DNA of 64,000 bases from Candidatus Poribacteria bacterium (lineage in GTDB: Bacteria; Poribacteria; WGA-4E; PCPOR2b). This document shows positions 51,681 through 64,000 of the stretch, piece after piece. The first letter of the stretch is position 1. Every line of letters begins with the position of its first letter. The position numbers and the translations under genes are program-made. The stretch lies in NCBI GenBank assembly GCA_965218095.1, contig OZ244587.1:1824001-1888000 (forward strand), read 5' to 3'. The notes beneath the pieces are model-generated. The model was not told the origin of the DNA. It made no database searches and saw only the letters and a program-made list of their open reading frames with translations.

Positions 51681-51896
51681 TCCAGGCGTCGCCTGCCACG
51701 ACCCTGTTTTTCCCATTAACCTGTATCAGCGTGATACCACGAAAAAACAGGTGAGCGGGCGACATATCCTTCTTTGGATCGCTATGTGATCACCTCCTTT
51801 GCTGGTTGGTATATGGCGAGAAGACGGGCTGCTCATCAGCCAGCGGGCAGCCTACCCATTATATCATTTTTTTCTTGGTCTAGGATAGTTGATAAG

Positions 51897-52689
51897 ACGG
51901 ATGACACTGCTGGAAGTCCGGAAGAGTGCCTCAAAGTCATCAAGAATTGGTTTAAAGCCCGTTGCAATGGGTGGTGGGAACATCACTGCGGATTTAGCTT
52001 AGAGACGACGGACAATCCGGGATGGTTGGCTTCCTTTGAGTTATACACGACTGAAGCTGAAGCCAACTTGATATTAGCTAATCCACTTAATCGAAACGAT
52101 GTGGATGTGAGTGTACAAAACGGGCGTCATATATTCCGAATCCTTGTCTGCGTGCCTTGAAGCATGCTCCTCGATAATTGTCGGTGCCGAGCGCCTCTTG
52201 GTGGACGCACGAAAGAGTGTGCCTGAAGGCGAGTACCCATTACCTAGAATTATTATTGGATGGATTGAGGATGGTGAGAATCCGAGGTTGTGTGATGGAG
52301 GGTTGTTTGGCAAAGCCGACTCGGAAATTTCAAATGTGCTACGCGTTCTCGGGTTTGCCAACACCGTAAAGATTCTCTCCGATGAAACATTCGATTTCGA
52401 TCTAGATGCAGTTAGTTCAACAAAATCGTCGTCTACGACGCTAATCTTGATTCGGACGCTTCCCATAAAACCGGTCGAATTTCCTTGTCTCCGTACTGGT
52501 TTTGCCGTGTATGAACAGCGGGAGGATCAGTTTGTTCTGGCATCTTCAGTCTGCAAGTTTCATCATGAGAGCGGCAAAATCGCCATTAAGTCCACCTGCG
52601 ATGAACAAGGGACTGTTGGTATTCACTACTGGTTAAAAATCAGGGATGTCATGACTGCGGGGTCCGTCAACGTTGTTTTGCAGAAGTGA
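51897..52689 (+). pseudogene. Imm53-family immunity domain protein, probably frameshifted
   Basis: WFKARCNGWWEHHCGFSLETTDNPGW matches the Imm53 pattern W...CDGDWEH..G..I.TLDNPGW; likely continues in ORF 52111-52689. Confidence 0.7.
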
Positions 52690-52949
52690 CTGCCACATAC
52701 GGAACGAAATCACAAACGGAAAACCCCCGGCGTTCCTAACATCGGGGGTTTTCCATATCCACGAATTGTCACCGCATCGGTAGAAGGAATGGAGAATCCG
52801 CGATGAAGCAGATCTATATGATTCTTTTAGCCTTTTTGCTAATAGGCCCCAAAGCCGGAGAAAGCCAAATGGATGCCCAAACCCTCATCCGCCTGCTAAA
52901 TTTTCAGACAACGCTCATCCAAGATACCGAGATCAATTTCCTATGGTAT

Positions 52950-53690
52950 ACGTCGACTATCCCATCATCGGGGACGCCAAGCTAGTGCTGCAGCAGTTCA
53001 TAGAGGCCTGCAAAGACCTCCAAACCCAAGCATCAGCCGGAACGATAACAGTCGTGGAAGAGATCGCATTCGTTAGGCAAGAGTGGTTGAAGCAGTGGAT
53101 GCCCAAGCTCACATCGGATGGAGTCCCCATCACTCCCTACTGCGTCATCTGGGAGTTCATGAACAATGTTGACCCGGCAAAAGCTATCGTCACCCACGAC
53201 TCTGGAAGCCCTCGCGACCAGTTGATGCCCTTCTATCAGTCGGGAGGCCCTCGAACGTACCTGGGCTAGGGCAAGTCCCACGGGCTTGGACTTAACATCG
53301 GTGCGAAACTCGCCGCGCCCGACAAATTCGTGGTTAACTTCATGGGGGACGCCGCATTCGGGATGACGGAGCTGGACTTCGAGACGACTACCCGAAATAA
53401 CATACCGGTCCTCACCATAGTGCTTAACAACTCCACCATGGCTATAGAGACAACGCATATGGCCCGATCCCATGAGCGATACGGGACCCGGGACATTGGC
53501 GGAAACTATGCCGATATGGCGCTGGCTATGGGCGGATGGGCGGAGCAGATAGAAGACCCCGCAGACGTTGGCACAGCAATCCGGCGCGCCAGGAAGGCCA
53601 CCGAGGATGGGCAAGCGTCGCTGCTCGAATTCATCACCAGCGAGGAGATCGCCTTCTCACACAGGCGCCCCTTCTCACAGCTCACGATCG
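52950..53690 (+). pseudogene. 3' half of a TPP-dependent (acetolactate synthase-like) enzyme, fused to the 5' fragment of a secreted protein (52803-52950)
   Basis: VTHDSGSPRDQ...YLG*GKSHGLG...NFMGDAAFGM...LNN; TAG at 53267-53269. Confidence 0.82.
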
Positions 53691-53833
53691 GGGATTCTTC
53701 GCATCTGAAACCGCAGAGACCGCTGAGTGCGTAGAGAAATTCCGATTTAATACTTGTAGGACTTACGCAGCCGATGTGCAGAACCTGCGATTTCACCGTA
53801 TCGTGAATCTTGTATCCGTGTTTGTATCCCTGA

Positions 53834-55756
53834 TTAGGCATTCCGAAAATCAAGCATTGCTTGCCGATACGCCTCCGGCACCCCGATATCAAAGCGCCTC
53901 CCTTTGACGAGGTAACCAGAGAACTGATCTTCTTTCCGCAACTTATCCAGACAAGAGGTCAACTGAAACTCGCCGTGCTCGCGAAAATTATGGGTGATGT
54001 TTTCTTCCAGGTAGTCAAAGATCTGCGGCGTCAAAACATACATACCAAACACAGTGAGGAAATGATCTGCGTCCATCCCATCCACATGAAGATGCTGTCG
54101 GGCATACTCTGCATCGGGCTTTTCGTAGAACTCTGTTACTGAAAGGATCGAGTCCGGCTCCTGCCAGGCGCCGGTCACACAACCGAAGTGGTGAAGTTTA
54201 TCTACATGTGTGACCTTCAACCCGACTACGCTATGCCCGACACGATCATAGATATCCAGCAGTTGCCTTGTGCATGAAATCTCATTATCGGACGCATAGA
54301 GGTGGTCTCCCAGCATGAGCAGAAACGGTTCACCATTTACCCATTTTTGCGCACAAAAGACAGCGTGTCCGAATCCATCCTGAACGTCTTGTGTGACAAA
54401 CGAAATGCGACATCCCAAGTTCATCAGGTGCCGGCAATATTCTTGATCTTCCTTCGACAGTTTGTTGAAATTCTCGATTGCCGGCGGCGTCTTGAAGAAC
54501 TCTTCGAAGAGTTCCCGATCCCTGCTTTGCACAACAAGGCAGACCTCTTCAATTCCAGCATTGATTGCTTCTTCGACGATTGCCATAATGACGGGCTTGG
54601 GTCTACCGTCTCGGTCAATGATAGGGAAAAGCTCCTTCTTGATTGCCTTCGATGCGGGAAATAAACGAGTACCAAACCCCGCAGCCGGGATAACCGCTTT
54701 TCGCACACGCCGTCCCGCCTGAATGACCAGCTTTAAGCAAGACATCTTCAGGTCTCGCTCTATGATTTCGATGACCTTCTGCTGGCTCTCCTCATCTTTA
54801 ACGATAAATTGCGCGGAGCCATCTCCCTGCGATCCAACCCCTTTCCCGCCTAATATGTACGGCTGAATCAGCGCGTAGTTGAGGACTTTGTGAAGCACGG
54901 GGGCAGTCAACTGCAACGGACAGGCAGGTTGAAGGTGCGTATCGAATTCCGCCTGTGCCTTTTTCATCAATTCTCCAACGCTGGCTGCATCCCCTTGGTG
55001 CAACGCTTCGTGTGCTTCGTGGGTTATATTCGCACTGATTGGGCCCAGATATTTCTGGACGTTCCTTTGCATCTTGTTCTCAGCAAAGGGATAACAGTGG
55101 TTCAGTTGATTCAGTATCTCCCGCGTATCCTTACCCGCACCCAGATCGACGATAACGAAATGCAGGTCTTTCGGCACGTTGATCTCTTCGACATCGATCC
55201 GGTCCCCGTCAAAGGTCATCATGATAGGGCGACTCCCATACGCGCAGCCTTGATCCATCCGACCACAACGGGAAGGCGTAGTGATCTCGCCGATGTAGGC
55301 ATACTCCATTTCACCACGGACGGTCATTTTCAGGTCATAAACGCGGTTGAACCCGCGCGCAACAAGAACACAGATCGCCGCGCTTGATGAGAGGCCCTTC
55401 TTAACGGGAAGGTCGGTGAGGTAATTATCGATCTCCAGACCATGCACATGGTAGTGCATCAGAATTTGGTAGGCGACACCAGCGGCATAACTGAAAAAGC
55501 CCCCCTTTTCTGCTTCGGCAAGCAGCGTGTCACTTTCCATGGGCAATTCAAATGGTCCCTCGCGTGTGCCGTCACTCAGTGTGGTACGTAAAATCAGCTT
55601 GGTTGGATGAGGCTGCACTTCGGCATAAAGCCCTTGATTGGTGCCGGTGATGATTGTGTACCCTTTTTCTAAATCGGCGTTGGTACGACGATAGCCGCCG
55701 GCCCAATCGCTATGCTCACCAAAGAGACAGATACGTCCGGGCACAAAAATCCTCAT
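53834..55756 (-). CDS. Bifunctional GHMP sugar kinase / GalU-like sugar-1-phosphate nucleotidyltransferase
   Basis: PGRICLFGEHSD, PVKKGLSSSAA, GRMDQ; then KAVIPAAGFGTRLFPASKAIKKEL, GFGHAV, LGD, EKP, FDIG. Confidence 0.9.
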   Translation of the reverse strand: MRIFVPGRICLFGEHSDWAGGYRRTNADLEKGYTIITGTNQGLYAEVQPHPTKLILRTTLSDGTREGPFELPMESDTLLAEAEKGGFFSYAAGVAYQILMHYHVHGLEIDNYLTDLPVKKGLSSSAAICVLVARGFNRVYDLKMTVRGEMEYAYIGEITTPSRCGRMDQGCAYGSRPIMMTFDGDRIDVEEINVPKDLHFVIVDLGAGKDTREILNQLNHCYPFAENKMQRNVQKYLGPISANITHEAHEALHQGDAASVGELMKKAQAEFDTHLQPACPLQLTAPVLHKVLNYALIQPYILGGKGVGSQGDGSAQFIVKDEESQQKVIEIIERDLKMSCLKLVIQAGRRVRKAVIPAAGFGTRLFPASKAIKKELFPIIDRDGRPKPVIMAIVEEAINAGIEEVCLVVQSRDRELFEEFFKTPPAIENFNKLSKEDQEYCRHLMNLGCRISFVTQDVQDGFGHAVFCAQKWVNGEPFLLMLGDHLYASDNEISCTRQLLDIYDRVGHSVVGLKVTHVDKLHHFGCVTGAWQEPDSILSVTEFYEKPDAEYARQHLHVDGMDADHFLTVFGMYVLTPQIFDYLEENITHNFREHGEFQLTSCLDKLRKEDQFSGYLVKGRRFDIGVPEAYRQAMLDFRNA

Positions 55757-56001
55757 TATTTTGACTCCAACTTGTGTTATCTTCTCTAGTGTACGATAGG
55801 CTCCCTGACGAGATCTGATTTGAAAGAGATTTGAGAAAATCGATACAATCACGCAGAAATCAGGCTTCTCATGGGGAATTTCTAGAGGCTCTAAAAATCC
55901 GTGTCCTCTCTCAAAGAATATGGTATAACACCGTCATTATACGGATTGGAACACAAAATACAAGAACGAAATCCATGAAAGAAACGAAAGGAGAAAGTAC
56001 C

Positions 56002-56676: not shown

Positions 56677-56799
56677 TTGTCTGAATCGCGGATTGTTGCA
56701 GATTTATGGATTTCGCGAATTAAGGCTTTCGCCGGTACAGGTTTTAATCCGCGAAATCCGCGAAATCCGCGTTATCCGTTTAATTCGCGATTCTGATAA
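56677..56799. repeat. MITE-like repeat with internal 9-bp AATCCGCGA iterations
   Basis: TTGTCTGAATCGCGGATT ... AATTCGCGATTCTGATAA; related halves near 60930, 11205 and 17212. Confidence 0.7.
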
Positions 56800-56820
56800 G
56801 GGAATACCGACAAACCACCA

Positions 56821-59800
56821 TCAAAACTGGACGCCCGCAAAGAATCCGGGCCAAACACAAATGGTTACATCGACATCGTCCGGTCGGACCACGTGGCCGA
56901 ATCCGTATCCAAAATCCGAAGTGTCCTGTCTATCTGAGACGAGGAGGTTGAGCGAAATCCCACCAAAGACACTAAACCACTTGTGCTGTTCCCAGCCGAC
57001 TGCGAAGCGTAGTTTGTTCAAGAGGCTGTGTTCATCCTCCCACCAGTCATCCCAATCCCAATCATCGGTATAAAGCACCGGGCGAATCGTGGCATCAACG
57101 TTGAGAAAAAGTCGCTTACCGAGTGGAATATGCCCACCCATACCAAACCCCCACGACCATCTGCCCAAATCGCCGTGTGGATAACTGCCGACCACGAACA
57201 GGCTATAAACGTGTCGGCTACCGAGACGAATCCCAAGGTTTGCAACCTCCGTATCGCTACCCCACAATTGCAGGTGCAGTGGATTGTCCCTAACAAAGCT
57301 GATTAATCCGATCGGGATGCCGGACATCCGTCTGGAGACGTTGAGAAGCCCTACCTGCGACGTTCCCACATGTCCAGCGATATTGAGAAGTCCAATCTGT
57401 GTCCCAATCCCACCGGGCGCAATATTGACCATGCTAATCTGTGTGCCGGCAGTCGAGATGCCCGCGTTTTGGTGCCAGCCAAGCGCGATATTGCTGATTA
57501 GGCTGAGTTGCATCCCCTCCAAATGCCCGGTAATGTTACCGCCGACTGCGGTTTGTAGACTTCGACCTTGCACATTCCCTCCGACGAAGTTCAGTCCGCC
57601 GGCTGCCTGCCAGCCGCGAAGGTCGCGGGCGACGAGATTACCCCCGACTGCGGCTTGAACTCCCCGCGCACCTCCACCGACCACATTGCCGCCTCCTACC
57701 ACTTGGAAGCCGTCAAGGTTGCCGCCGCTAACGTTGAGACCCACCGAGGCTTGGAAACCCTCCACGTTTCTGCCGGCGATGTTGGCACCGATTGCGGCTT
57801 GTAGACCGCGACTTAGCACATTCTCTCCGACGAGGTTTAGTCCGTAGGCGATCTGCAAACCCTGAAAGTTGCGCGCTGCAAAATTACCCCCGATAGCGGC
57901 TTGAATGCCTCGCACACTTCCACCGGCAGCATTGACCCCTACTGCCGCTTGAAAGCCATCAAGGTCGCCGCCGATGGCATTGAGACCACCCGAGGCTTGG
58001 AAACCCTCCACGTTTCTGCCGACAGTGTTGAACCCGGTTGAGACTTGAAAACCATCTACATTTCCACCGACGATATTGCCCACCCCAGCAAATTGCGCGC
58101 CCCGCGCTTCAAGGCCCTTCATGTTCAAAACCCCTCCCAATTCGATGCCATCAAGTTTCGTATGATAGCCCGCAATGATGTTGAGGGAAAGGTTCGTTGT
58201 GACATTGCGGTTGAGGGCACGAACTCCGACAGTGCTTATCCACGGAATCAGTGAAATCGTCACAGGCAGATGCAAATCGCTATCTTTTGCGGTTCGCGGC
58301 ACAACACCACCATCCTTCTCTAAAGGGGAGAAGGGTTCTAAGTCGCGGGTGGGTTGAGGTGGAGGAACCTGGGTAATTCGGGGGGGCAATCCCTCATTGT
58401 TGATTACCGGCGGATCAATCCCTTGGTGGTTCAGCAGTGAGATATATTTCCCGTTATAAAAAACACGGGGTGTAATCTGCTGTGGGTAGCGTAGCTCATC
58501 GGACAGGTGGGAATGCCATTCCTCGATGCCGCGTGTCACATAATCCAACAGCCCCAACACCGTGACGGTCCCATCGGGGCTCGCTGCGCCCCGGTCTTGA
58601 TAGTCACCGCTCAACCCTTTGAGCAGGAAGTAGGTGAACAGCCCATGTTTCAGTCGCGGAACTTCAGGCGCCCACTGGTTGCTATCACACGCAGTGAAGA
58701 TGATGTTACTCTCTTCACTATAACGTGACAACGCCGCAACAAAGTGCTCCTTCGGTGCTACCCGACACGCATCGACGATGACAAAACGGTGTTTCGCGTT
58801 TGCGCGATTGAGAATCGCAAACAGATTTTCGAGACTCAGTCCACTGTCCACGAGTGGATCGGTGACATCCATCGGCAGAAAGTAACCTGTTCCATCGACA
58901 TCCTCTCCATGCCCGGAGAGATAAACGGTCAGCAGATCTACCGCTTCAAGCTGAGCGTGTCGTTGGAGCTGCTCAATCACATTCGCCTTCGTCGGCTGAA
59001 TCAGGCTATCGGGTGTCATCAACGTCACATTGACGCCTGCGTCTTGGAACACCTGCGCGACCGCTTTGGCATCATCAGCGGCATACTTGAGCGACTGGAA
59101 GGGGGACGGATAGGCATCCACACCGATAACAACCGCCCAATGTCGCATATTGACACCGCTCGCAGCCCCCAGCTGGAAATTACCACCACCGGCAAGAGCC
59201 AACGCCCGCTGACTCACCTCTATCGTCTGCCCTTTTATCGTCGTGAGGGTTAATGTTTTCTCCTGCTCCACCATCAAGTCGGTAGGGAGAAACGTCTCAT
59301 CGAAGCGGTTTTCTGGGCCCTCAAGGACAGGTTGCCACGCCAGATTCCACTGTTTGTGGTCGTTCTGGACGTGCTGAACGAGTTGTCGGTACGTCAGTTT
59401 GTCGTGCCGTTGCGCCCCAATCGCCTGATTTGCAGGACTTAGCAAGTGGGAGAACATCCGCCGATAGAGGGAATAGGTCATCGCGCTGACAGGTAGATAG
59501 GTTTTGCCAATCGGGATGCGTAGTTCGTGAACGACTTGATTGTAGGCAGCAGCCGCCAGCAGTAGTGCAAAATCAGCGGATTCATCTAAGATGTCCTCCG
59601 TATGGCTTACAGTCTGGGTAGGTTGAACGTTTGCCGTTGGGGTATCCGTCACCGGCGTGCCTTTGGGTCGTCCCAGACGAATCTCTCGGAGTATATCGCC
59701 GGAGTAGCATGTGTCGATAATGCAGGAAACCTCCCGCGTCGGAAGCTCTTGGAGTAAGATGTTGAGTTCATCATCCAGCAGGTACGTCTTTGGCGATGCC

Positions 59801-60225
59801 AGATTTGCGTCCACAGGCAATAGGGCTTCGTCGTTCCTATCCGGATATCGCCCCTTCGCTTCATCGCCCGGAAAAGTTCCGAGTTTGTCAATAATCTGCG
59901 TCCCGTGTCCGCTAAAATAGAAAAGCAGGCTATCAGAAGGGGTCAGGCGTCGGCTGAGTTCTCGAAATTTACGCTGAATCTGCGCCTTATTCGGATTGGT
60001 CAGGATGTGCATCTGCGTCTGTGTGACGCCGTGCGTAGAGAGGACCGCTTCCATCAGCTTCAAGTCGTTTGGCGGAGCGTCAAGCTGCAAGTTTGGATTT
60101 GCATAGTCCCAAACACCCACCAGGATGGCGTGTTGCTCGGCGTGGGCAAACTGTGAAAACATCACGAAAAGACTAAAGACCGGAAGCACCCATCGAATCG
60201 TTGACCCCAAGCTATTTTGAGACAT
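56821..60225 (-). CDS. Exported protein with two caspase-like (peptidase C14) domains, Gly-rich 16-aa repeats and a probable outer-membrane beta-barrel C-terminus
   Basis: Signal peptide (AHA-E); domain 1 FSGHG/DTCYSG; domain 2 LSGHG/DACR with HGLFT; GxQxxxGxN repeats; amphipathic beta strands ending in F. Confidence 0.88.
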   Translation of the reverse strand: MSQNSLGSTIRWVLPVFSLFVMFSQFAHAEQHAILVGVWDYANPNLQLDAPPNDLKLMEAVLSTHGVTQTQMHILTNPNKAQIQRKFRELSRRLTPSDSLLFYFSGHGTQIIDKLGTFPGDEAKGRYPDRNDEALLPVDANLASPKTYLLDDELNILLQELPTREVSCIIDTCYSGDILREIRLGRPKGTPVTDTPTANVQPTQTVSHTEDILDESADFALLLAAAAYNQVVHELRIPIGKTYLPVSAMTYSLYRRMFSHLLSPANQAIGAQRHDKLTYRQLVQHVQNDHKQWNLAWQPVLEGPENRFDETFLPTDLMVEQEKTLTLTTIKGQTIEVSQRALALAGGGNFQLGAASGVNMRHWAVVIGVDAYPSPFQSLKYAADDAKAVAQVFQDAGVNVTLMTPDSLIQPTKANVIEQLQRHAQLEAVDLLTVYLSGHGEDVDGTGYFLPMDVTDPLVDSGLSLENLFAILNRANAKHRFVIVDACRVAPKEHFVAALSRYSEESNIIFTACDSNQWAPEVPRLKHGLFTYFLLKGLSGDYQDRGAASPDGTVTVLGLLDYVTRGIEEWHSHLSDELRYPQQITPRVFYNGKYISLLNHQGIDPPVINNEGLPPRITQVPPPQPTRDLEPFSPLEKDGGVVPRTAKDSDLHLPVTISLIPWISTVGVRALNRNVTTNLSLNIIAGYHTKLDGIELGGVLNMKGLEARGAQFAGVGNIVGGNVDGFQVSTGFNTVGRNVEGFQASGGLNAIGGDLDGFQAAVGVNAAGGSVRGIQAAIGGNFAARNFQGLQIAYGLNLVGENVLSRGLQAAIGANIAGRNVEGFQASVGLNVSGGNLDGFQVVGGGNVVGGGARGVQAAVGGNLVARDLRGWQAAGGLNFVGGNVQGRSLQTAVGGNITGHLEGMQLSLISNIALGWHQNAGISTAGTQISMVNIAPGGIGTQIGLLNIAGHVGTSQVGLLNVSRRMSGIPIGLISFVRDNPLHLQLWGSDTEVANLGIRLGSRHVYSLFVVGSYPHGDLGRWSWGFGMGGHIPLGKRLFLNVDATIRPVLYTDDWDWDDWWEDEHSLLNKLRFAVGWEQHKWFSVFGGISLNLLVSDRQDTSDFGYGFGHVVRPDDVDVTICVWPGFFAGVQF

Positions 60226-60889
60226 TGTGCGCTCCTTTCGTAAAATTTTCCAGCAGTTCTAAAAAACGCCGCTGCTCGAGCGATAGCTTCTCCGCCAAGG
60301 CGTCGCGCTCAACGGTGGTAAGCGAACCCAATTTGAGTCGAGATTGGTAGAGTTCGACCAGTTTGACGTGCATCGCGAGGTCTTCGGGATGCATCTTCAA
60401 AAACGTTTCAACCGCTTCGATTGAGGCGGCGAGTTGTCCTGCGTTCGTTGGTTCGGGCACAATGAGAAACTCCAACATCCCCTCCGCTGAGAGGGGCGGG
60501 GGCCCCGTATTTTCACCGCCCTTTCGTGCGCCCCACTCTATCGACAGATTGAGCGGGGAGAAAATCGACACAGCGAACATCAAAATCACCACCGCGCCTG
60601 CCGCCGAAGGCACCCACAACGGTATCCGCATTCCAAACCACTTCCGGATGCGCGTCCAAAATGACGGTTGCTCAAGTGGCGGCACCTGTGGTGCTTTCAT
60701 CGGAAAGTGTCCAGCTCGGACGGCTGCCCCGAGGTCGTGCAGCGATTTTTCTGTCTCTTGCAAAATTGTATGTCTCCGCTCGCATGCTTCACATTTGAGA
60801 AGATGGGCGCGGATGGGTTTCGATGCGCGAGCGGACAAATCTTTATCAATGTAGTGGAGCAGTTTTTTCTGCACACGACTGCATTTCAT
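60212..60889 (-). CDS. Zinc-binding (zf-HC2/ZAS) transmembrane anti-sigma factor
   Basis: HLLKCEAC (HxxxCxxC), one TM helix, about 100-aa extracytoplasmic domain; overlaps the caspase gene by 14 bp. Confidence 0.88.
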   Translation of the reverse strand: MKCSRVQKKLLHYIDKDLSARASKPIRAHLLKCEACERRHTILQETEKSLHDLGAAVRAGHFPMKAPQVPPLEQPSFWTRIRKWFGMRIPLWVPSAAGAVVILMFAVSIFSPLNLSIEWGARKGGENTGPPPLSAEGMLEFLIVPEPTNAGQLAASIEAVETFLKMHPEDLAMHVKLVELYQSRLKLGSLTTVERDALAEKLSLEQRRFLELLENFTKGAHNVSK

Positions 60890-61211
60890 CGGTGTTCAAC
60901 CTCCTTTTATGATGGGCTGTGGGCTATTGTTGTCTGAATCACGGATTAAACAGATGACGCAGATGACACGGATTAAGAACCAACTCTATCGGGTGGTAGG
61001 ACGCGCTGTGTACCCCTTATGGAAGCGCATAGAAGCCGCGGGGGCTGTGTCGCCGTTTTCAAAAACCTGATTTTCCATGAGAAAGAGGCACCCCCGGAAT
61101 AATGAGCACCCCTCAAATCGATAAATCCTTTGCGCCTTTGCGTCCCCCGAAATCGGGATTAAGAAACTCGCGCCCTTGCGTTGAATGCTTGAATTTATGA
61201 TTGAAAATTGC

Positions 61212-63527
61212 TTAAAACGTCATCGTCACACCGAGATAGGGAAAGAACGGCAATTGATGGAATGCCTCCTTTTCGATGGACGCATTGGAGTTCAACTCGC
61301 GGGTGTACTCGCGTCGGTAGGAAAACTCAAGGACGTTCTTGTGGTTATAGACGTTGAACAATTCGAGGAAAACCCCCATCTGCCAACAGTTGAAGATGAA
61401 CGACTTTTTGATGCGGATGTCGAGCCGATGAAACGGGGGCACGCGCAACGAATTGACCTCGCCCAAGATGGGGACATTAGAAACCACTATCACCTCACCG
61501 TATATCGCATCCGTTTTCTGCACCTTACGCTCCTCGAAGTCGATCGTGGGCGTGTACGGATTCCCTGTCGAATAGCGCCATTTTACACCGATCTCCCATG
61601 TGGGCGACAGATTGTAACTTCCCACGAGTGTTGCCACATGCGTCTGATCGAAAGAGTAAAGGTGCATGGGGGCGTCGGGATGTTCGCGCCGCCGCGAGCG
61701 TGAATAGGCGTAACTGAGAAAGCCGAAGAACCGCTTGCCTTGACGATGCCGCAGAAGAACCTCCGCCCCCCGTGCAAACCCTTCGCCCTGATTGAGATAT
61801 TTCGACACGTTATCCGTCATGATGATTTTGTCAAGGTCTTTGTAATAGCCCGCGAATTTCAAGTGGATTGATGGCGAAATCTTCCGCTCGACTTCGAGAA
61901 CGTAGTGCGTAGCAGTACTCGATTTGACATTGGGGTTACCGATGTCGGGCAAAATGTACCGCGGTTGTGGTCCCTGATTGTATTGTCCATACAAGAGGCG
62001 AATTTCTGACCTGTCTGACACCTGAAATTGGAGACTTGCCCGTGGGCCGACCGATAGCTCGTCCGTGGAGTTCAAATAGGTGGGCCGAACCCCAAACGCG
62101 GCGGAGACGAAAGGAACGGGAGTGTATCGGGCTTGCAGATAACTTTCGAGATGCGTAAAACGTCGCGACAAGTCCAGTTTTTCCAACTTATCTTCATCTA
62201 ATTCAACACCTGCAAAGAACGAGAAATCTTCGTCAAACCTGTCAGGGTCGGAGAGGAGACTCGATACGCTCCTGACCCCGCTTGAAAAGAGGACGCCTGA
62301 CTCTAGTTGATACCTCGAATTCAATTTGTAAATCAAGTCCTCACGAAGTTGATACGTCGGCTGGTCGTCTTGAAAGAAAAAATAAGTTGCATCATCCACA
62401 CCGTGTGCGACTCGGGAGAGGTTATAAGACCGGGAGAGTGTCAAATTTGAGGTGAGTCGATCGGTGAGATGGGAGCGAAGATGAATCCCCTGAGCATTGA
62501 ACCCGTTCTTATAAGAATAGTACTCAAGTTCAGCACCTTCCTCAAACTCCGCTTCAATATTGAAGAAGTCGCTCGTGGCAAACGCATTGAAGGTTAGCTG
62601 ATGCTTCTCGCCCAGGTCATAGCTGAACTGCGCCTGATAGTCCCAAAAACGCGGGAATGCCGTATTCGGGCCCAGTTCCTCATCCGCATCCAGATTAATC
62701 AACAACGGCAGCAACAGGTCAAGATAACTCCGCCGCCCTGCAACATACCACGCGCCACGAGCCCCGATTGGCCCTTCCACCATCCCCTCGGAATAGAGCA
62801 TGTTGATATTGAACTTGCCCGCGACTCGCTCCTGATTGCCATGCCGCGAGTGGATGTCAATAACCGCCTGTGCATCCGAGCCAAATTCCGCACCGAACCC
62901 ACCGGCGTAGACGTCTATCCGCTTGATAACCTCGGTACTGATGGTGGAGACGATTCCGAAGAAATGGTATGGATAGCCTATCGGTAAGCGGTCGAAATAA
63001 AAAACGTTATCTTCCGGGGCACCGCCGCGAATGTAAAGCGAACCGTCGAAATCGTTGGCAACAATGACCCCCGGCAACGATGGCAATGCCCGCAACGCAT
63101 CGCCCGCTGTCCCTGGCATCCGCTTGATTTCAAGGCTTTGCAGACTCTCCTGACTCACTGTCGCCGGAAATCGCTCTGCCGTCACAGGCACTTCCTGCAA
63201 CAAAAGAATTCGTTCAAGGTAGATTTCGACTTCCGTGACTTCTCCCGGCTTGACGGTGGCGGTCGTCTGGTCTGCCAAGCGATAGCCTTCTGCTGAAATG
63301 CTGAACGTATACTCACCCGGCCGCAGGTTTTCAAACCGAAATTTGCCTGCCAAATTTGTCACTGTCTCTTGATTGACCTCCCGCAAGCGAACCTGCGCCG
63401 AAGTGATATGGTCACGGCTGCCTTGCCTGTAAACCGTTCCGAAAACCTCGCCCGTTTCACCTGCGAACGAAACAGGAATGACGGACAGATACAAACTTAT
63501 CGTCAATATCAACATGCGGTGTTTCAC
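61212..63527 (-). CDS. TonB-dependent receptor with N-terminal carboxypeptidase-regulatory-like domain
   Basis: Signal peptide; plug LPSLPGV...IRGG...NVFYFD...GGFGAEFG; barrel ending FNVYN...LGVTMTF. Confidence 0.93.
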   Translation of the reverse strand: MKHRMLILTISLYLSVIPVSFAGETGEVFGTVYRQGSRDHITSAQVRLREVNQETVTNLAGKFRFENLRPGEYTFSISAEGYRLADQTTATVKPGEVTEVEIYLERILLLQEVPVTAERFPATVSQESLQSLEIKRMPGTAGDALRALPSLPGVIVANDFDGSLYIRGGAPEDNVFYFDRLPIGYPYHFFGIVSTISTEVIKRIDVYAGGFGAEFGSDAQAVIDIHSRHGNQERVAGKFNINMLYSEGMVEGPIGARGAWYVAGRRSYLDLLLPLLINLDADEELGPNTAFPRFWDYQAQFSYDLGEKHQLTFNAFATSDFFNIEAEFEEGAELEYYSYKNGFNAQGIHLRSHLTDRLTSNLTLSRSYNLSRVAHGVDDATYFFFQDDQPTYQLREDLIYKLNSRYQLESGVLFSSGVRSVSSLLSDPDRFDEDFSFFAGVELDEDKLEKLDLSRRFTHLESYLQARYTPVPFVSAAFGVRPTYLNSTDELSVGPRASLQFQVSDRSEIRLLYGQYNQGPQPRYILPDIGNPNVKSSTATHYVLEVERKISPSIHLKFAGYYKDLDKIIMTDNVSKYLNQGEGFARGAEVLLRHRQGKRFFGFLSYAYSRSRRREHPDAPMHLYSFDQTHVATLVGSYNLSPTWEIGVKWRYSTGNPYTPTIDFEERKVQKTDAIYGEVIVVSNVPILGEVNSLRVPPFHRLDIRIKKSFIFNCWQMGVFLELFNVYNHKNVLEFSYRREYTRELNSNASIEKEAFHQLPFFPYLGVTMTF

Positions 63528-63557
63528 TGTTGTGTCTCGCTATCTATTTCTCCTTTT

Positions 63558-63591
63558 AGAAACCGAGTTTTTTGCCAAAAACTCGGTTTCT
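63558..63591. repeat. REP-like hairpin between the sigma and TBDR genes
   Basis: AGAAACCGAGTTTTT-TGCC-AAAAACTCGGTTTCT. Confidence 0.65.
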
Positions 63592-63601
63592 GCGATATGT
63601 A

Positions 63602-64000
63602 CTAATCCCCAAAGAAATAGGACGCCAAGCATGTTGCGAGTTGTCCCCTTGCATGATGGAGACGACTTTTCACCGTCCCCTGCCGGATGCCGAGCCGTTT
63701 GGCAATCTTTTTTTCCGGGAGTTCCTCGACGTAGAATAGCCAGACCACCTGTTGATGAATAAGGGGAAGTTCCGAGATGGCGTCCCGAACGACCGTCAAC
63801 TTTTCTTGAAAGAGGACGTGTGTCTCCGGTGCGCGGGAATCTGATGGTATCTGCCCAGCCTCAAAATTTTCGTCGTCAAGGCTACCGAGTGCATGTCTGG
63901 CAGCAGTGCCTTGACGACGCGACCAGTTCCGAACCACATTTTTGGCAATCTCGTGTAGCCACGCCAGAAACGCCGCTTCGGATCTGTCCCTGACCGTCTC
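63602..64000 (-). CDS. ECF sigma-70 factor (5' end outside window)
   Basis: Region 2 FLAWLHEIAKNVVRNW; region 4 IAKRLGIRQGTVKSRLHHAR. Confidence 0.92.
   Translation of the reverse strand, partial: ETVRDRSEAAFLAWLHEIAKNVVRNWSRRQGTAARHALGSLDDENFEAGQIPSDSRAPETHVLFQEKLTVVRDAISELPLIHQQVVWLFYVEELPEKKIAKRLGIRQGTVKSRLHHARGQLATCLASYFFGD

Follow-up and report, generated by a model that had tools for sequence, protein, structure and literature searches.

A conserved Poribacteria operon links an extracytoplasmic function sigma factor and a zinc-finger anti-sigma factor to a predicted outer-membrane-tethered double caspase

Introduction

To our knowledge, bacterial caspase homologues are common, and almost none has a known substrate or role. 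Here we describe an operon of Candidatus Poribacteria bacterium that places such a protein beside a transcriptional switch. The operon lies at the end of a 64,000-nucleotide stretch of contig OZ244587.1 (assembly GCA_965218095.1, positions 1,824,001 to 1,888,000; "the window", with position 1 as its first letter) and consists of four intact, co-directional minus-strand genes, head to tail, which encode a sigma factor of the extracytoplasmic function (ECF) type, a TonB-type receptor, a zinc-finger anti-sigma factor and an exported caspase protein of 1134 amino acids (aa). The operon is real and conserved, and the association of its genes is not due to chance. Judged from sequence and structure prediction, the locus appears to be the Poribacteria version of a widespread cassette made of an ECF sigma factor, a single-pass membrane anti-sigma and an outer-membrane-tethered C14 protease. 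The reading that we favor, tentatively and with a probability of roughly 40%, is that the tethered caspase would act as a site-1 protease that cuts a linker of the anti-sigma and thereby switches the sigma factor on.

Results

Four co-directional genes form a conserved unit

The 179-aa sigma factor gene extends beyond the end of the window (63602..64141, minus strand, with 63602..64000 inside) and was completed from the genome copy. It is followed on the same strand by the gene for a 771-aa TonB-dependent-receptor-like outer-membrane protein (61212..63527), a spacer of 322 nucleotides (nt) in which no open reading frame (ORF) of at least 60 aa was called on that strand (60890..61211), the gene for a 225-aa single-pass anti-sigma of the zinc anti-sigma (ZAS) type (60212..60889), and the gene for the tandem-caspase outer-membrane protein (56821..60225). 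Sigma, receptor and caspase protein were assigned with Pfam and NCBIfam, and the anti-sigma from its zf-HC2 domain and an AlphaFold model. The end of the anti-sigma gene and the beginning of the caspase gene share 14 nt (60212-60225). A first-pass annotation of the window had described four intact co-directional genes with a 14-bp anti-sigma/caspase overlap, and both the ORF map and the domain searches agree with that description.

Searching contigs that represent one genome per species, we obtained 27 related loci, 26 from Candidatus Poribacteria and one from an "uncultured bacterium". When these were compared by tblastn with the window proteins, the anti-sigma gene lay directly 5' of the caspase gene in all 27, and the sigma gene was present in 26, the contig of the 27th being cut. 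The proposal that the genes form a conserved unit is borne out by these two counts. In 15 of 26 loci the ORFs called for anti-sigma and caspase share exactly 14 nt. One genome holds two paralogous loci. In one of them (L025:8001-12618) the caspase gene is broken up into four or more ORFs; the genome's second copy (L024) likewise lies in a locus without a receptor gene, and the L025 caspase gene probably represents a paralogue in decay.

Two sponge metatranscriptome libraries from one study contain short, near-identical contigs that cover 63260-64000, 61533-61685 and 56700-57012, where presence in an RNA library is no proof of transcription and uncovered stretches carry no meaning.

The double caspase most likely hangs from the outer membrane into the periplasm

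As read from its translation, the caspase protein starts with a hydrophobic (Sec) leader ending AHA/E. Pfam places Peptidase_C14 in the protein twice (125 bits). The first caspase domain covers about residues 30-310 (59296..60138, minus strand), with Peptidase_C14 at 32-258 and His107 and Cys173 as its dyad; the second covers about residues 355-566 (58528..59163, minus strand), matches NF047832 at 363-566 with 113.6 bits, below the 140-bit cut-off, and has His439 and Cys487. Peptidase C14 is characterized by a p20-like fold with a catalytic His-Cys dyad. Both domains match this family, all 18 Poribacteria sequences keep both dyads (H107/C173 and H439/C487), and the PDB matches include metacaspases, up to E 5.5e-6.

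Beyond a Pro-rich linker at about residues 600-647, the protein continues into a β-helix stalk (residues 648-980; 57286..58284, minus strand) of about 20 repeats of ~16 residues with the pattern G-x-Q-x-A-x-G-x-N, and then into a C-terminal 8-stranded outer-membrane β-barrel (residues 981-1134; 56824..57285, minus strand) that ends ...AGVQF, with Phe as its last residue. We modeled residues 640-1134 with AlphaFold on 55 sequences (mean predicted local distance difference test score, pLDDT, 86.6). Residues 9-340 of the model form the β-helix, which aligns to the antifreeze β-helix 3p4g (Z 16.3, root-mean-square deviation 2.4, 165 residues aligned) and also with two-partner secretion (TPS) and Ag43-type helices (HxuA, HMW1, EtpA, Ag43). 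Residues 342-495 form a small barrel that can be aligned with 8-stranded outer-membrane barrels, among them the OprF N-domain (4rlc, Z 13.9), NspA (1p4t, 13.4), OmpW and OprH (12.3) and PagL (11.9). Classical (type Va) autotransporters have a 12-stranded C-terminal barrel whose pore holds a linker helix. No helix precedes the barrel in the model, and 12-stranded autotransporter barrels are absent from the matches listed, an absence that is not proof. Foldseek returned the same 8-stranded barrels at a probability of about 1 with weak E-values (6e-3 to 0.1). The LA_2272 repeat (NF047436, cut-off 25 bits), an NCBIfam model named "surface repeat", scored 21.6 bits in the protein hmmscan and 28.2 bits in the genome search.

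Because both chain ends of 8-stranded outer-membrane barrels face the periplasm, the stalk and the caspase domains most likely hang into the periplasm from the outer membrane. With about 20 turns at 4.8 Å each, we estimate a modeled stalk length of about 100 Å. The view that the protease is exported, already taken in the first-pass annotation, is supported by the leader at one end and the barrel at the other.

A widespread single-caspase cassette pairs the same scaffold with other sigma and anti-sigma factors

A homologue search of 1.84 billion cluster representatives returned 296 proteins at E<=1e-30, most of which match the stalk-barrel part; a look-up of cluster names yielded just "hypothetical protein" plus one Thermoguttaceae caspase. 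A Pfam scan covered 40 of the 296, drawn from the best 150. Among the 40 were (i) 24 proteins of 714-863 aa with one N-terminal C14 domain plus the stalk-barrel module, (ii) 5 proteins (P0197, P0204, P0218, P0219 and P0248) in which STN and/or CarboxypepD_reg is fused ahead of the β-helix and barrel, and (iii) 9 proteins with no Pfam domain. P0122 (784 aa, 44% identical to the query) carries one C14 domain, and P0216, a double-caspase protein of a different kind, has an FGE-sulfatase domain. STN scored above its cut-off in P0197 only (31 bits against 28.4) and more weakly in P0204 and P0218. STN is the periplasmic signaling domain of FecA-type transducers. Its occurrence in the position of the caspase supports a periplasmic orientation and a signaling use of the stalk-barrel scaffold. 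The five proteins would amount to a FecA-like signaling head on a non-TonB barrel. Against the family profile, the window protein scored 156.7 + 293.9 bits over its stalk-barrel module and only 18 and 25 bits over its caspase domains.

A single-caspase profile, made from an alignment of the 24 proteins, was then scanned on metagenome contigs. Of 597 candidate stretches, 546 encoded relatives, and we retained the 80 best (L029-L108). A Pfam scan of 107 upstream ORFs detected ECF sigma domains at 30 of these loci. Because longest-ORF calling hid further ones in contigs of high G+C content, we built profiles from 24 sigma and 34 middle-protein sequences and searched them against all six-frame ORFs of the 80 loci. 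Both an ECF sigma and a middle protein with a single transmembrane (TM) helix were found beside the caspase gene in 65. The other 15 comprise seven with the middle protein at the contig edge, seven with <900 nt upstream, and one (L042) with a middle protein and no sigma within 7 kb. The trio is thus present in 65 of 66 informative metagenome loci. A simple order test found 53 of the 65 to be co-directional in the order sigma > middle > caspase; the remaining 12 include divergent arrangements and cases in which over-long open frames confused the order. The middle, anti-sigma-like protein is about 260 aa long. A VPDWLLERY-x-LGEL helix stands at its N-terminus, a single TM helix lies close to residue 90, and its periplasmic part matches DUF4384 weakly. 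At 46 of 67 junctions, the end of its gene and the beginning of the caspase gene share 4 nt.

The first-pass annotation had made its proposal depend on caspase homologues being linked to sigma and anti-sigma genes elsewhere, and in all but one of the informative loci distant relatives are so linked. The partners are others. On the window's genome the cassette sigma profile did not place the operon sigma among its top 15 matches (<34 bits, against 200-250 within the cassette), and the middle-protein profile did not match the ZAS anti-sigma. The window protein therefore shares the fusion of caspase with β-helix and 8-strand barrel with the widespread cassette, and its sigma and anti-sigma are not orthologous to those of the cassette. 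Because the sigmas and anti-sigmas are non-orthologous between the lineages, the pairing would have been either kept or rebuilt with different partners. That the theme exists with non-orthologous partners argues that the link between sigma, anti-sigma and outer-membrane caspase is functional and not merely inherited.

A stalk-barrel protein of 427 aa that has no caspase (L109:6712-7995, genome G007) lies between Peptidase_M48 and DUF4403 genes with no sigma gene nearby. Because this copy stands alone, the module is also used outside sigma cassettes.

The anti-sigma linker carries a motif that recurs in the protease

In the anti-sigma, Pfam finds zf-HC2 only (24 bits against a cut-off of 22.2), so that no FecR domain was detected; the N-terminal region is helical. 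All 18 Poribacteria anti-sigmas keep residues C3, H29, C33 and C36, and the single TM helix falls within about residues 88-112 (96-110 in the AlphaFold model). An N-terminal H-x3-C-x2-C zinc motif with one TM helix after it is what is expected of a class I anti-sigma of the ZAS type, to which the protein had been assigned at first pass, with zinc binding predicted. The AlphaFold model has a mean pLDDT of 64. Residues 150-223 form a periplasmic three-helix bundle (pLDDT 83-90), and residues 111-145, with pLDDT below 50, form a flexible segment between the TM helix and the bundle. A PDB sequence search with the anti-sigma gave nothing useful, and a fold search with its model returned generic three-helix bundles only (MIT, spectrin, TPR; E above 0.1).

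The membrane-adjacent linker, residues 111-145 (60455..60559, minus strand), combines this low pLDDT with columns that are invariant in all 18 anti-sigmas: E118, G120, K123 and G124, and then the block PPLSAEGMLEFLIVP. It is a candidate site-1 cleavage and docking segment. K123-G124 has a counterpart in the protease, where an invariant loop after the catalytic Cys of caspase domain 1 reads R186-P-K188-G189 in 18 of 18 Poribacteria proteins. The same correspondence occurs in the widespread cassette. All 24 single-caspase proteins have R163-x-K165-G166, located 7-10 residues past the catalytic Cys, and the middle proteins have K-G in 34 of 34 and R-x-K-G in 24 of 34, just past the TM helix; of 25 R-x-K-G occurrences in middle proteins, 24 fall at this post-TM site. 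Metacaspases and orthocaspases are described as cutting after Arg or Lys (PMC3501461). A flexible linker in which Gly comes after a basic residue, with a like sequence in a loop of the protease itself, is how a substrate and an autoprocessing site would be expected to look. We favor the site-1 protease role because proteases and anti-sigmas of both lineages share (R)-x-K-G, which in the anti-sigmas lies in a membrane-adjacent flexible linker. The first-pass annotation had suggested that the caspase domains may cleave the anti-sigma, and the K-G motif common to both lends this idea indirect support.

According to this proposal, the ZAS anti-sigma would hold the sigma factor at the inner membrane, and the double caspase, suspended from the outer membrane by the stalk of about 100 Å plus the tether, would have its heads near the inner membrane. 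In response to an envelope cue, the caspase would cleave the linker of the anti-sigma at the invariant pair K123-G124 or close to it, after which an RseP-type M50 site-2 protease would free the sigma factor; a Peptidase_M50 is encoded in the genome (228 bits). The freed sigma factor would raise expression of the operon, including the co-transcribed TonB-type receptor.

There is a more specific form of this proposal, which we consider unlikely, in which the caspase protein serves as an envelope ruler. The rigid ~100 Å β-helix and the Pro-rich tether would set the depth of the heads, which might be a built-in pseudo-dimer that replaces the dimerization required by caspases, and membrane distance or outer-membrane integrity would decide whether the heads reach the K-G linker. 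Such a device would have been assembled at least two times with non-orthologous sigma/anti-sigma pairs. If this is true, it would constitute a new class of site-1 protease and provide the first defined substrate for a bacterial C14 caspase.

The same linker can also be read in another way. The caspase protein may bind or occlude the periplasmic segment of the anti-sigma, as RseB does for RseA or as a TonB-dependent transducer would, so that the anti-sigma becomes accessible to other proteases once the link between outer and inner membrane is lost, with the caspase activity reserved for self-processing or other substrates. The invariant block PPLSAEGMLEFLIVP within a segment predicted to be disordered resembles a docking motif, coupled translation suggests stoichiometric partners, and TonB-dependent transducers have been reported to protect anti-sigma factors from proteolysis (PMC11637429). 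We nevertheless judge such a guarding role improbable, since the catalytic dyads are invariant in the 18 Poribacteria proteins and in all 24 single-caspase relatives, and a role that is only structural would call for no such conservation.

The operon very probably activates itself

The operon sigma matches Sigma70_r2 (24.3 bits, cut-off 24) and Sigma70_r4_2 (49.4 bits) in Pfam and TIGR02937 (66.4 bits) in NCBIfam; with sigma-70 regions 2 and 4 only and a length of 179 aa, it falls within the range of about 160-200 aa that is typical of the ECF group. A promoter-like motif, TGAACC-N14-CRACAC, lies 48 nt 5' of the sigma start (about 64156-64189, minus strand, outside the window), with an AGGAGG ribosome site after it. 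ECF promoters consist of a GAAC-type -35 element and a short -10 element, and the motif has that form. It is conserved among the loci, being kept at the window's operon and in 25 of 26 Poribacteria loci, at a distance of 48 nt from the start everywhere except L008 (78 nt); L026 is without it. We built a weight matrix from the conserved sites, the window's own included, and scanned the 6.35-Mb genome with it. The operon's own site scored 41.1 and the runner-up 12.9, and the strict pattern occurred once in the genome. Relaxed patterns gave 25 and 64 genome matches against a composition-based expectation of about 37 and 74. These frequencies are near chance, and additional regulon members can be neither claimed nor excluded. 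Since a conserved ECF-type promoter that is unique in the genome precedes the sigma gene, the predicted promoter very probably allows the operon to activate itself.

This result bears on the most serious competitor of the site-1 proposal, in which the sigma and anti-sigma sense an envelope cue by an unrelated route and the caspase and receptor are the regulon, so that the protease remodels, degrades or kills, be it in envelope quality control, defense or programmed death. Within the genome the conserved promoter has a single strong match, at the operon itself, which makes the co-transcribed genes the obvious output, and it is well established that many ECF operons carry effectors downstream. 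The stand-alone stalk-barrel copies without a sigma factor, beside Peptidase_M48 and DUF4403 genes in a related genome, point in the same direction, as does the interpretation of sigma/metacaspase operons as related to cell death by Asplund-Samuelsson et al. (PMC3501461). Three observations speak against a pure output: translational coupling of anti-sigma and caspase almost everywhere, a pairing that outlasts replacement of both sigma and anti-sigma by non-orthologous ones, and the conserved K-G motif common to the protease loop and the anti-sigma linker. On balance we hold the output explanation to be somewhat unlikely.

Within the 74-nt spacer between the sigma and receptor genes lies a perfect hairpin with a 14-bp stem (GAAACCGAGTTTTT / AAAAACTCGGTTTC; 63559..63590, minus strand). 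It is a member of a repeated palindromic element, for which the genome contains 22 copies of a loosened pattern as well as 43/42 half-sites. Many contigs from two RNA libraries, differing in their flanks, terminate at this hairpin. It may attenuate read-through.

Several points weigh against the caspase as site-1 protease. The operon is a lineage-restricted accessory system, because its caspase gene was found in only 27 of 151 sampled genomes and 4 of 22 genera of the phylum. Frequencies in the positive genera are, for example, 18/20, 6/9 and 2/2, and the two largest genera have none (0/38 and 0/57). Gene linkage fits equally well with a protease that is an output of the sigma factor. Because the caspase gene sits downstream in an operon driven by that sigma factor, the protease would need further control to stay silent. 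K-G is a motif of only two residues whose shared position is suggestive but no proof, and the Poribacteria anti-sigma does not conserve the Arg at -2. The two lineages have anti-sigmas with different periplasmic domains, a three-helix bundle in Poribacteria and a weak DUF4384 match in the widespread family. Lastly, the resemblance of the β-helix to surface adhesin and passenger domains, together with the "surface repeat" name, makes a location on the cell surface possible.

The receptor is probably not a core part of the system

The receptor has a signal peptide, CarboxypepD_reg (53.8 bits) and Plug (36.7 bits) domains by Pfam, and a divergent barrel. TonB-dependent transporters combine a plug domain with a 22-stranded barrel. 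No barrel model matched the window receptor at E<=0.01; its orthologue at L010:4788-7295 matches TonB_dep_Rec_b-barrel (50.9 bits), and the TonB box was read by eye only. STN (PF07660) gave no match in the 771-aa receptor at E<=0.01 and none in the orthologues of L010 and L005 at E<=0.001. A PDB sequence search with the receptor gave nothing useful.

An ORF of about 780-850 aa lies between sigma and anti-sigma in 23 of 27 related loci. By tblastn, 6 of these 23 match the window receptor over its full length at about 65% identity, and in the other 17 the match is confined to the N-terminal half at about 40%. In the paralogous loci L024 and L025 the sigma gene abuts the anti-sigma gene, with no receptor between them; L026 has a receptor-like gene upstream of its sigma gene; and the widespread single-caspase cassette has no receptor. 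The first-pass suggestion of the receptor as a core part finds no support in this pattern of absence and displacement. We infer that the receptor is a lineage-specific passenger or output and not a FecA-like transducer. In one Poribacteria clade an extra ORF of 156-168 aa is found between receptor and anti-sigma (L019:6644-7150, L022:6665-7147 and L023:6681-7151), and a Pfam scan of the three gave no match.

A further idea of the first-pass annotation gave the receptor a direct role: a surface protease would release peptides for import by the neighboring TonB-type receptor. In this reading the caspases would be displayed on the outside in the manner of an autotransporter. The β-helix is like those of secreted adhesins and passengers, and a receptor gene is in the operon of the window and of the 23 loci. 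The anchor, however, aligns with 8-stranded barrels (Z 12-14), with no 12-stranded autotransporter barrels among the matches listed. An 8-stranded barrel cannot pass a polypeptide, and the N-terminus of such an anchor should face the periplasm. The lack of a receptor in L024, L025 and the widespread cassette also counts against peptide import, and the sister proteins that bear STN argue for periplasmic N-terminal domains. A surface protease that feeds the receptor is thus highly improbable.

Genes around the operon

The genes that flank the operon are unrelated to it. Directly 3' of it, on the same strand, lies a gene for a 672-aa fusion of a GHMP-kinase (galactokinase-like) with a nucleotidyl-transferase (53834-55852), which is not kept beside the operon in relatives. 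The ORF at 53330-53734 has a partial TPP_enzyme_C match (profile positions 50-143 only), and its neighbor at 52943-53269 reads as the preceding part of the same thiamine pyrophosphate (TPP) enzyme in another frame; together they look like a broken gene for a TPP-dependent enzyme. The first-pass remark that accessory genes in the window are broken was spot-checked, and it holds for the ORF at 53330-53734 as a fragment of a TPP-enzyme C-terminal domain. An ORF of 128 aa at 51774-52160 scores 46.9 bits against immunity protein 53 (Imm53), a family whose members are immunity proteins of polymorphic toxins.

In three related loci, WD40 β-propeller proteins of about 920-960 aa are encoded 3' of the caspase gene (L020:11856-14738, L023:11483-14356 and L008:11377-14148). 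A 450-aa ORF at L019:11758-13110 combines ECF sigma regions 2 and 4 with WD40 repeats. Because this ORF joins both, the downstream WD40 proteins may be sigma-WD40 fusions.

Discussion

What the cassette provides is a defined and testable pair made of an outer-membrane-tethered caspase and the anti-sigma whose gene precedes it, along with a candidate cleavage motif and, in the conserved promoter, a reporter at hand. If the caspase is the site-1 enzyme, it would open a new route from the outer membrane to transcription, beside DegS/RseA, FecA/FecR and Dma, and caspase-fold proteolytic signaling would operate in the bacterial periplasm. The Poribacteria form, with its two caspase domains, zinc anti-sigma and co-transcribed TonB-type receptor, illustrates the modularity of the theme and may be relevant to host sensing by these sponge symbionts.

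In the RpoE/RseA/DegS/RseP pathway, a periplasmic site-1 protease (DegS, an inner-membrane serine protease encoded elsewhere) acts first and an M50 site-2 protease follows. The same two-step cut is proposed here, except that the site-1 enzyme would be a caspase-fold cysteine protease that is encoded in the operon and hung from the outer membrane. The outline of regulated intramembrane proteolysis is also given in PMC11506125, which describes a mechanistic parallel in DdvA of Myxococcus xanthus, a ZAS anti-sigma with a periplasmic caspase-fold TPR-CHAT domain for which self-cleavage before RseP was proposed and not observed. As described there, DdvS/DdvA resembles the operon in having an ECF sigma, a single-pass zinc-binding anti-sigma and a periplasmic caspase-fold domain proposed to clip a membrane-adjacent linker. 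The differences are that the protease of DdvA is inside the anti-sigma polypeptide, that its active site is incomplete and that its regulon is an island of CRISPR and of the cyclic oligonucleotide-based anti-phage signaling system (CBASS), whereas here the protease is a separate, predicted outer-membrane-anchored C14 protein.

In Dma1 an anti-sigma is tied to an 8-stranded outer-membrane barrel, and its authors report that they did not find Dma outside Bacteroidota (PMC10927553). What Dma and our operon have in common is an ECF signaling unit joined to a C-terminal 8-stranded outer-membrane barrel, a unit that in this way bridges both membranes. Dma, as described, is a single polypeptide with a disordered periplasmic tether and no protease; here the barrel is encoded by a separate gene and bears a β-helix and caspases. 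Anti-sigma, TM helix and barrel, which define Dma when they occur in one polypeptide, are divided in the window between two ORFs, the 225-aa anti-sigma and the 1134-aa barrel protein.

The FecI/FecR/FecA system likewise groups an ECF sigma with a membrane-bound anti-sigma and an outer-membrane protein of the TonB type in one cluster. The analogy drawn at first pass goes no further, since here both features that define such systems are missing, the receptor being without the N-terminal STN signaling domain and the anti-sigma not being FecR-like, and the receptor is dispensable in related loci. In type III-E CRISPR, the craspase (Csx29/Csx30/CASP-sigma) is a caspase-fold protease that reportedly controls an ECF-type sigma by cutting its inhibitor. 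Craspase is cytoplasmic, RNA-guided and of the TPR-CHAT type, and there are no CRISPR genes in the Poribacteria operon.

The main text of an ECF reclassification paper (PMC7826278) mentions no caspase, C14 or DUF4384, and in the part of its supplement searched DUF4384 appears only for ECF25 anti-sigmas and CHAT only for ECF54 (as CHAT neighbors), with no caspases mentioned there. Our literature search for a periplasmic or outer-membrane caspase linked to an anti-sigma yielded, within the library searched, none beyond DdvA and an operon listing from 2012. In that listing, Asplund-Samuelsson et al. give four sigma/metacaspase operons of Myxococcus xanthus and others from Anaeromyxobacter, Haliangium, Sorangium, Ralstonia and Fibrobacter (PMC3501461), which are very probably the widespread single-caspase cassette. 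As here, a sigma factor and a caspase homologue are encoded together; the passages that describe the listing mention no anti-sigma, outer-membrane anchor, motif or mechanism. Compared with the operons as listed, the Poribacteria locus differs by its pair of caspase domains, its ZAS anti-sigma, an ECF sigma of another type and the TonB-type receptor inserted into it. That sigma factors are associated with metacaspases is thus already known, and what the present locus adds is a version that contains a double caspase, a ZAS anti-sigma and a receptor.

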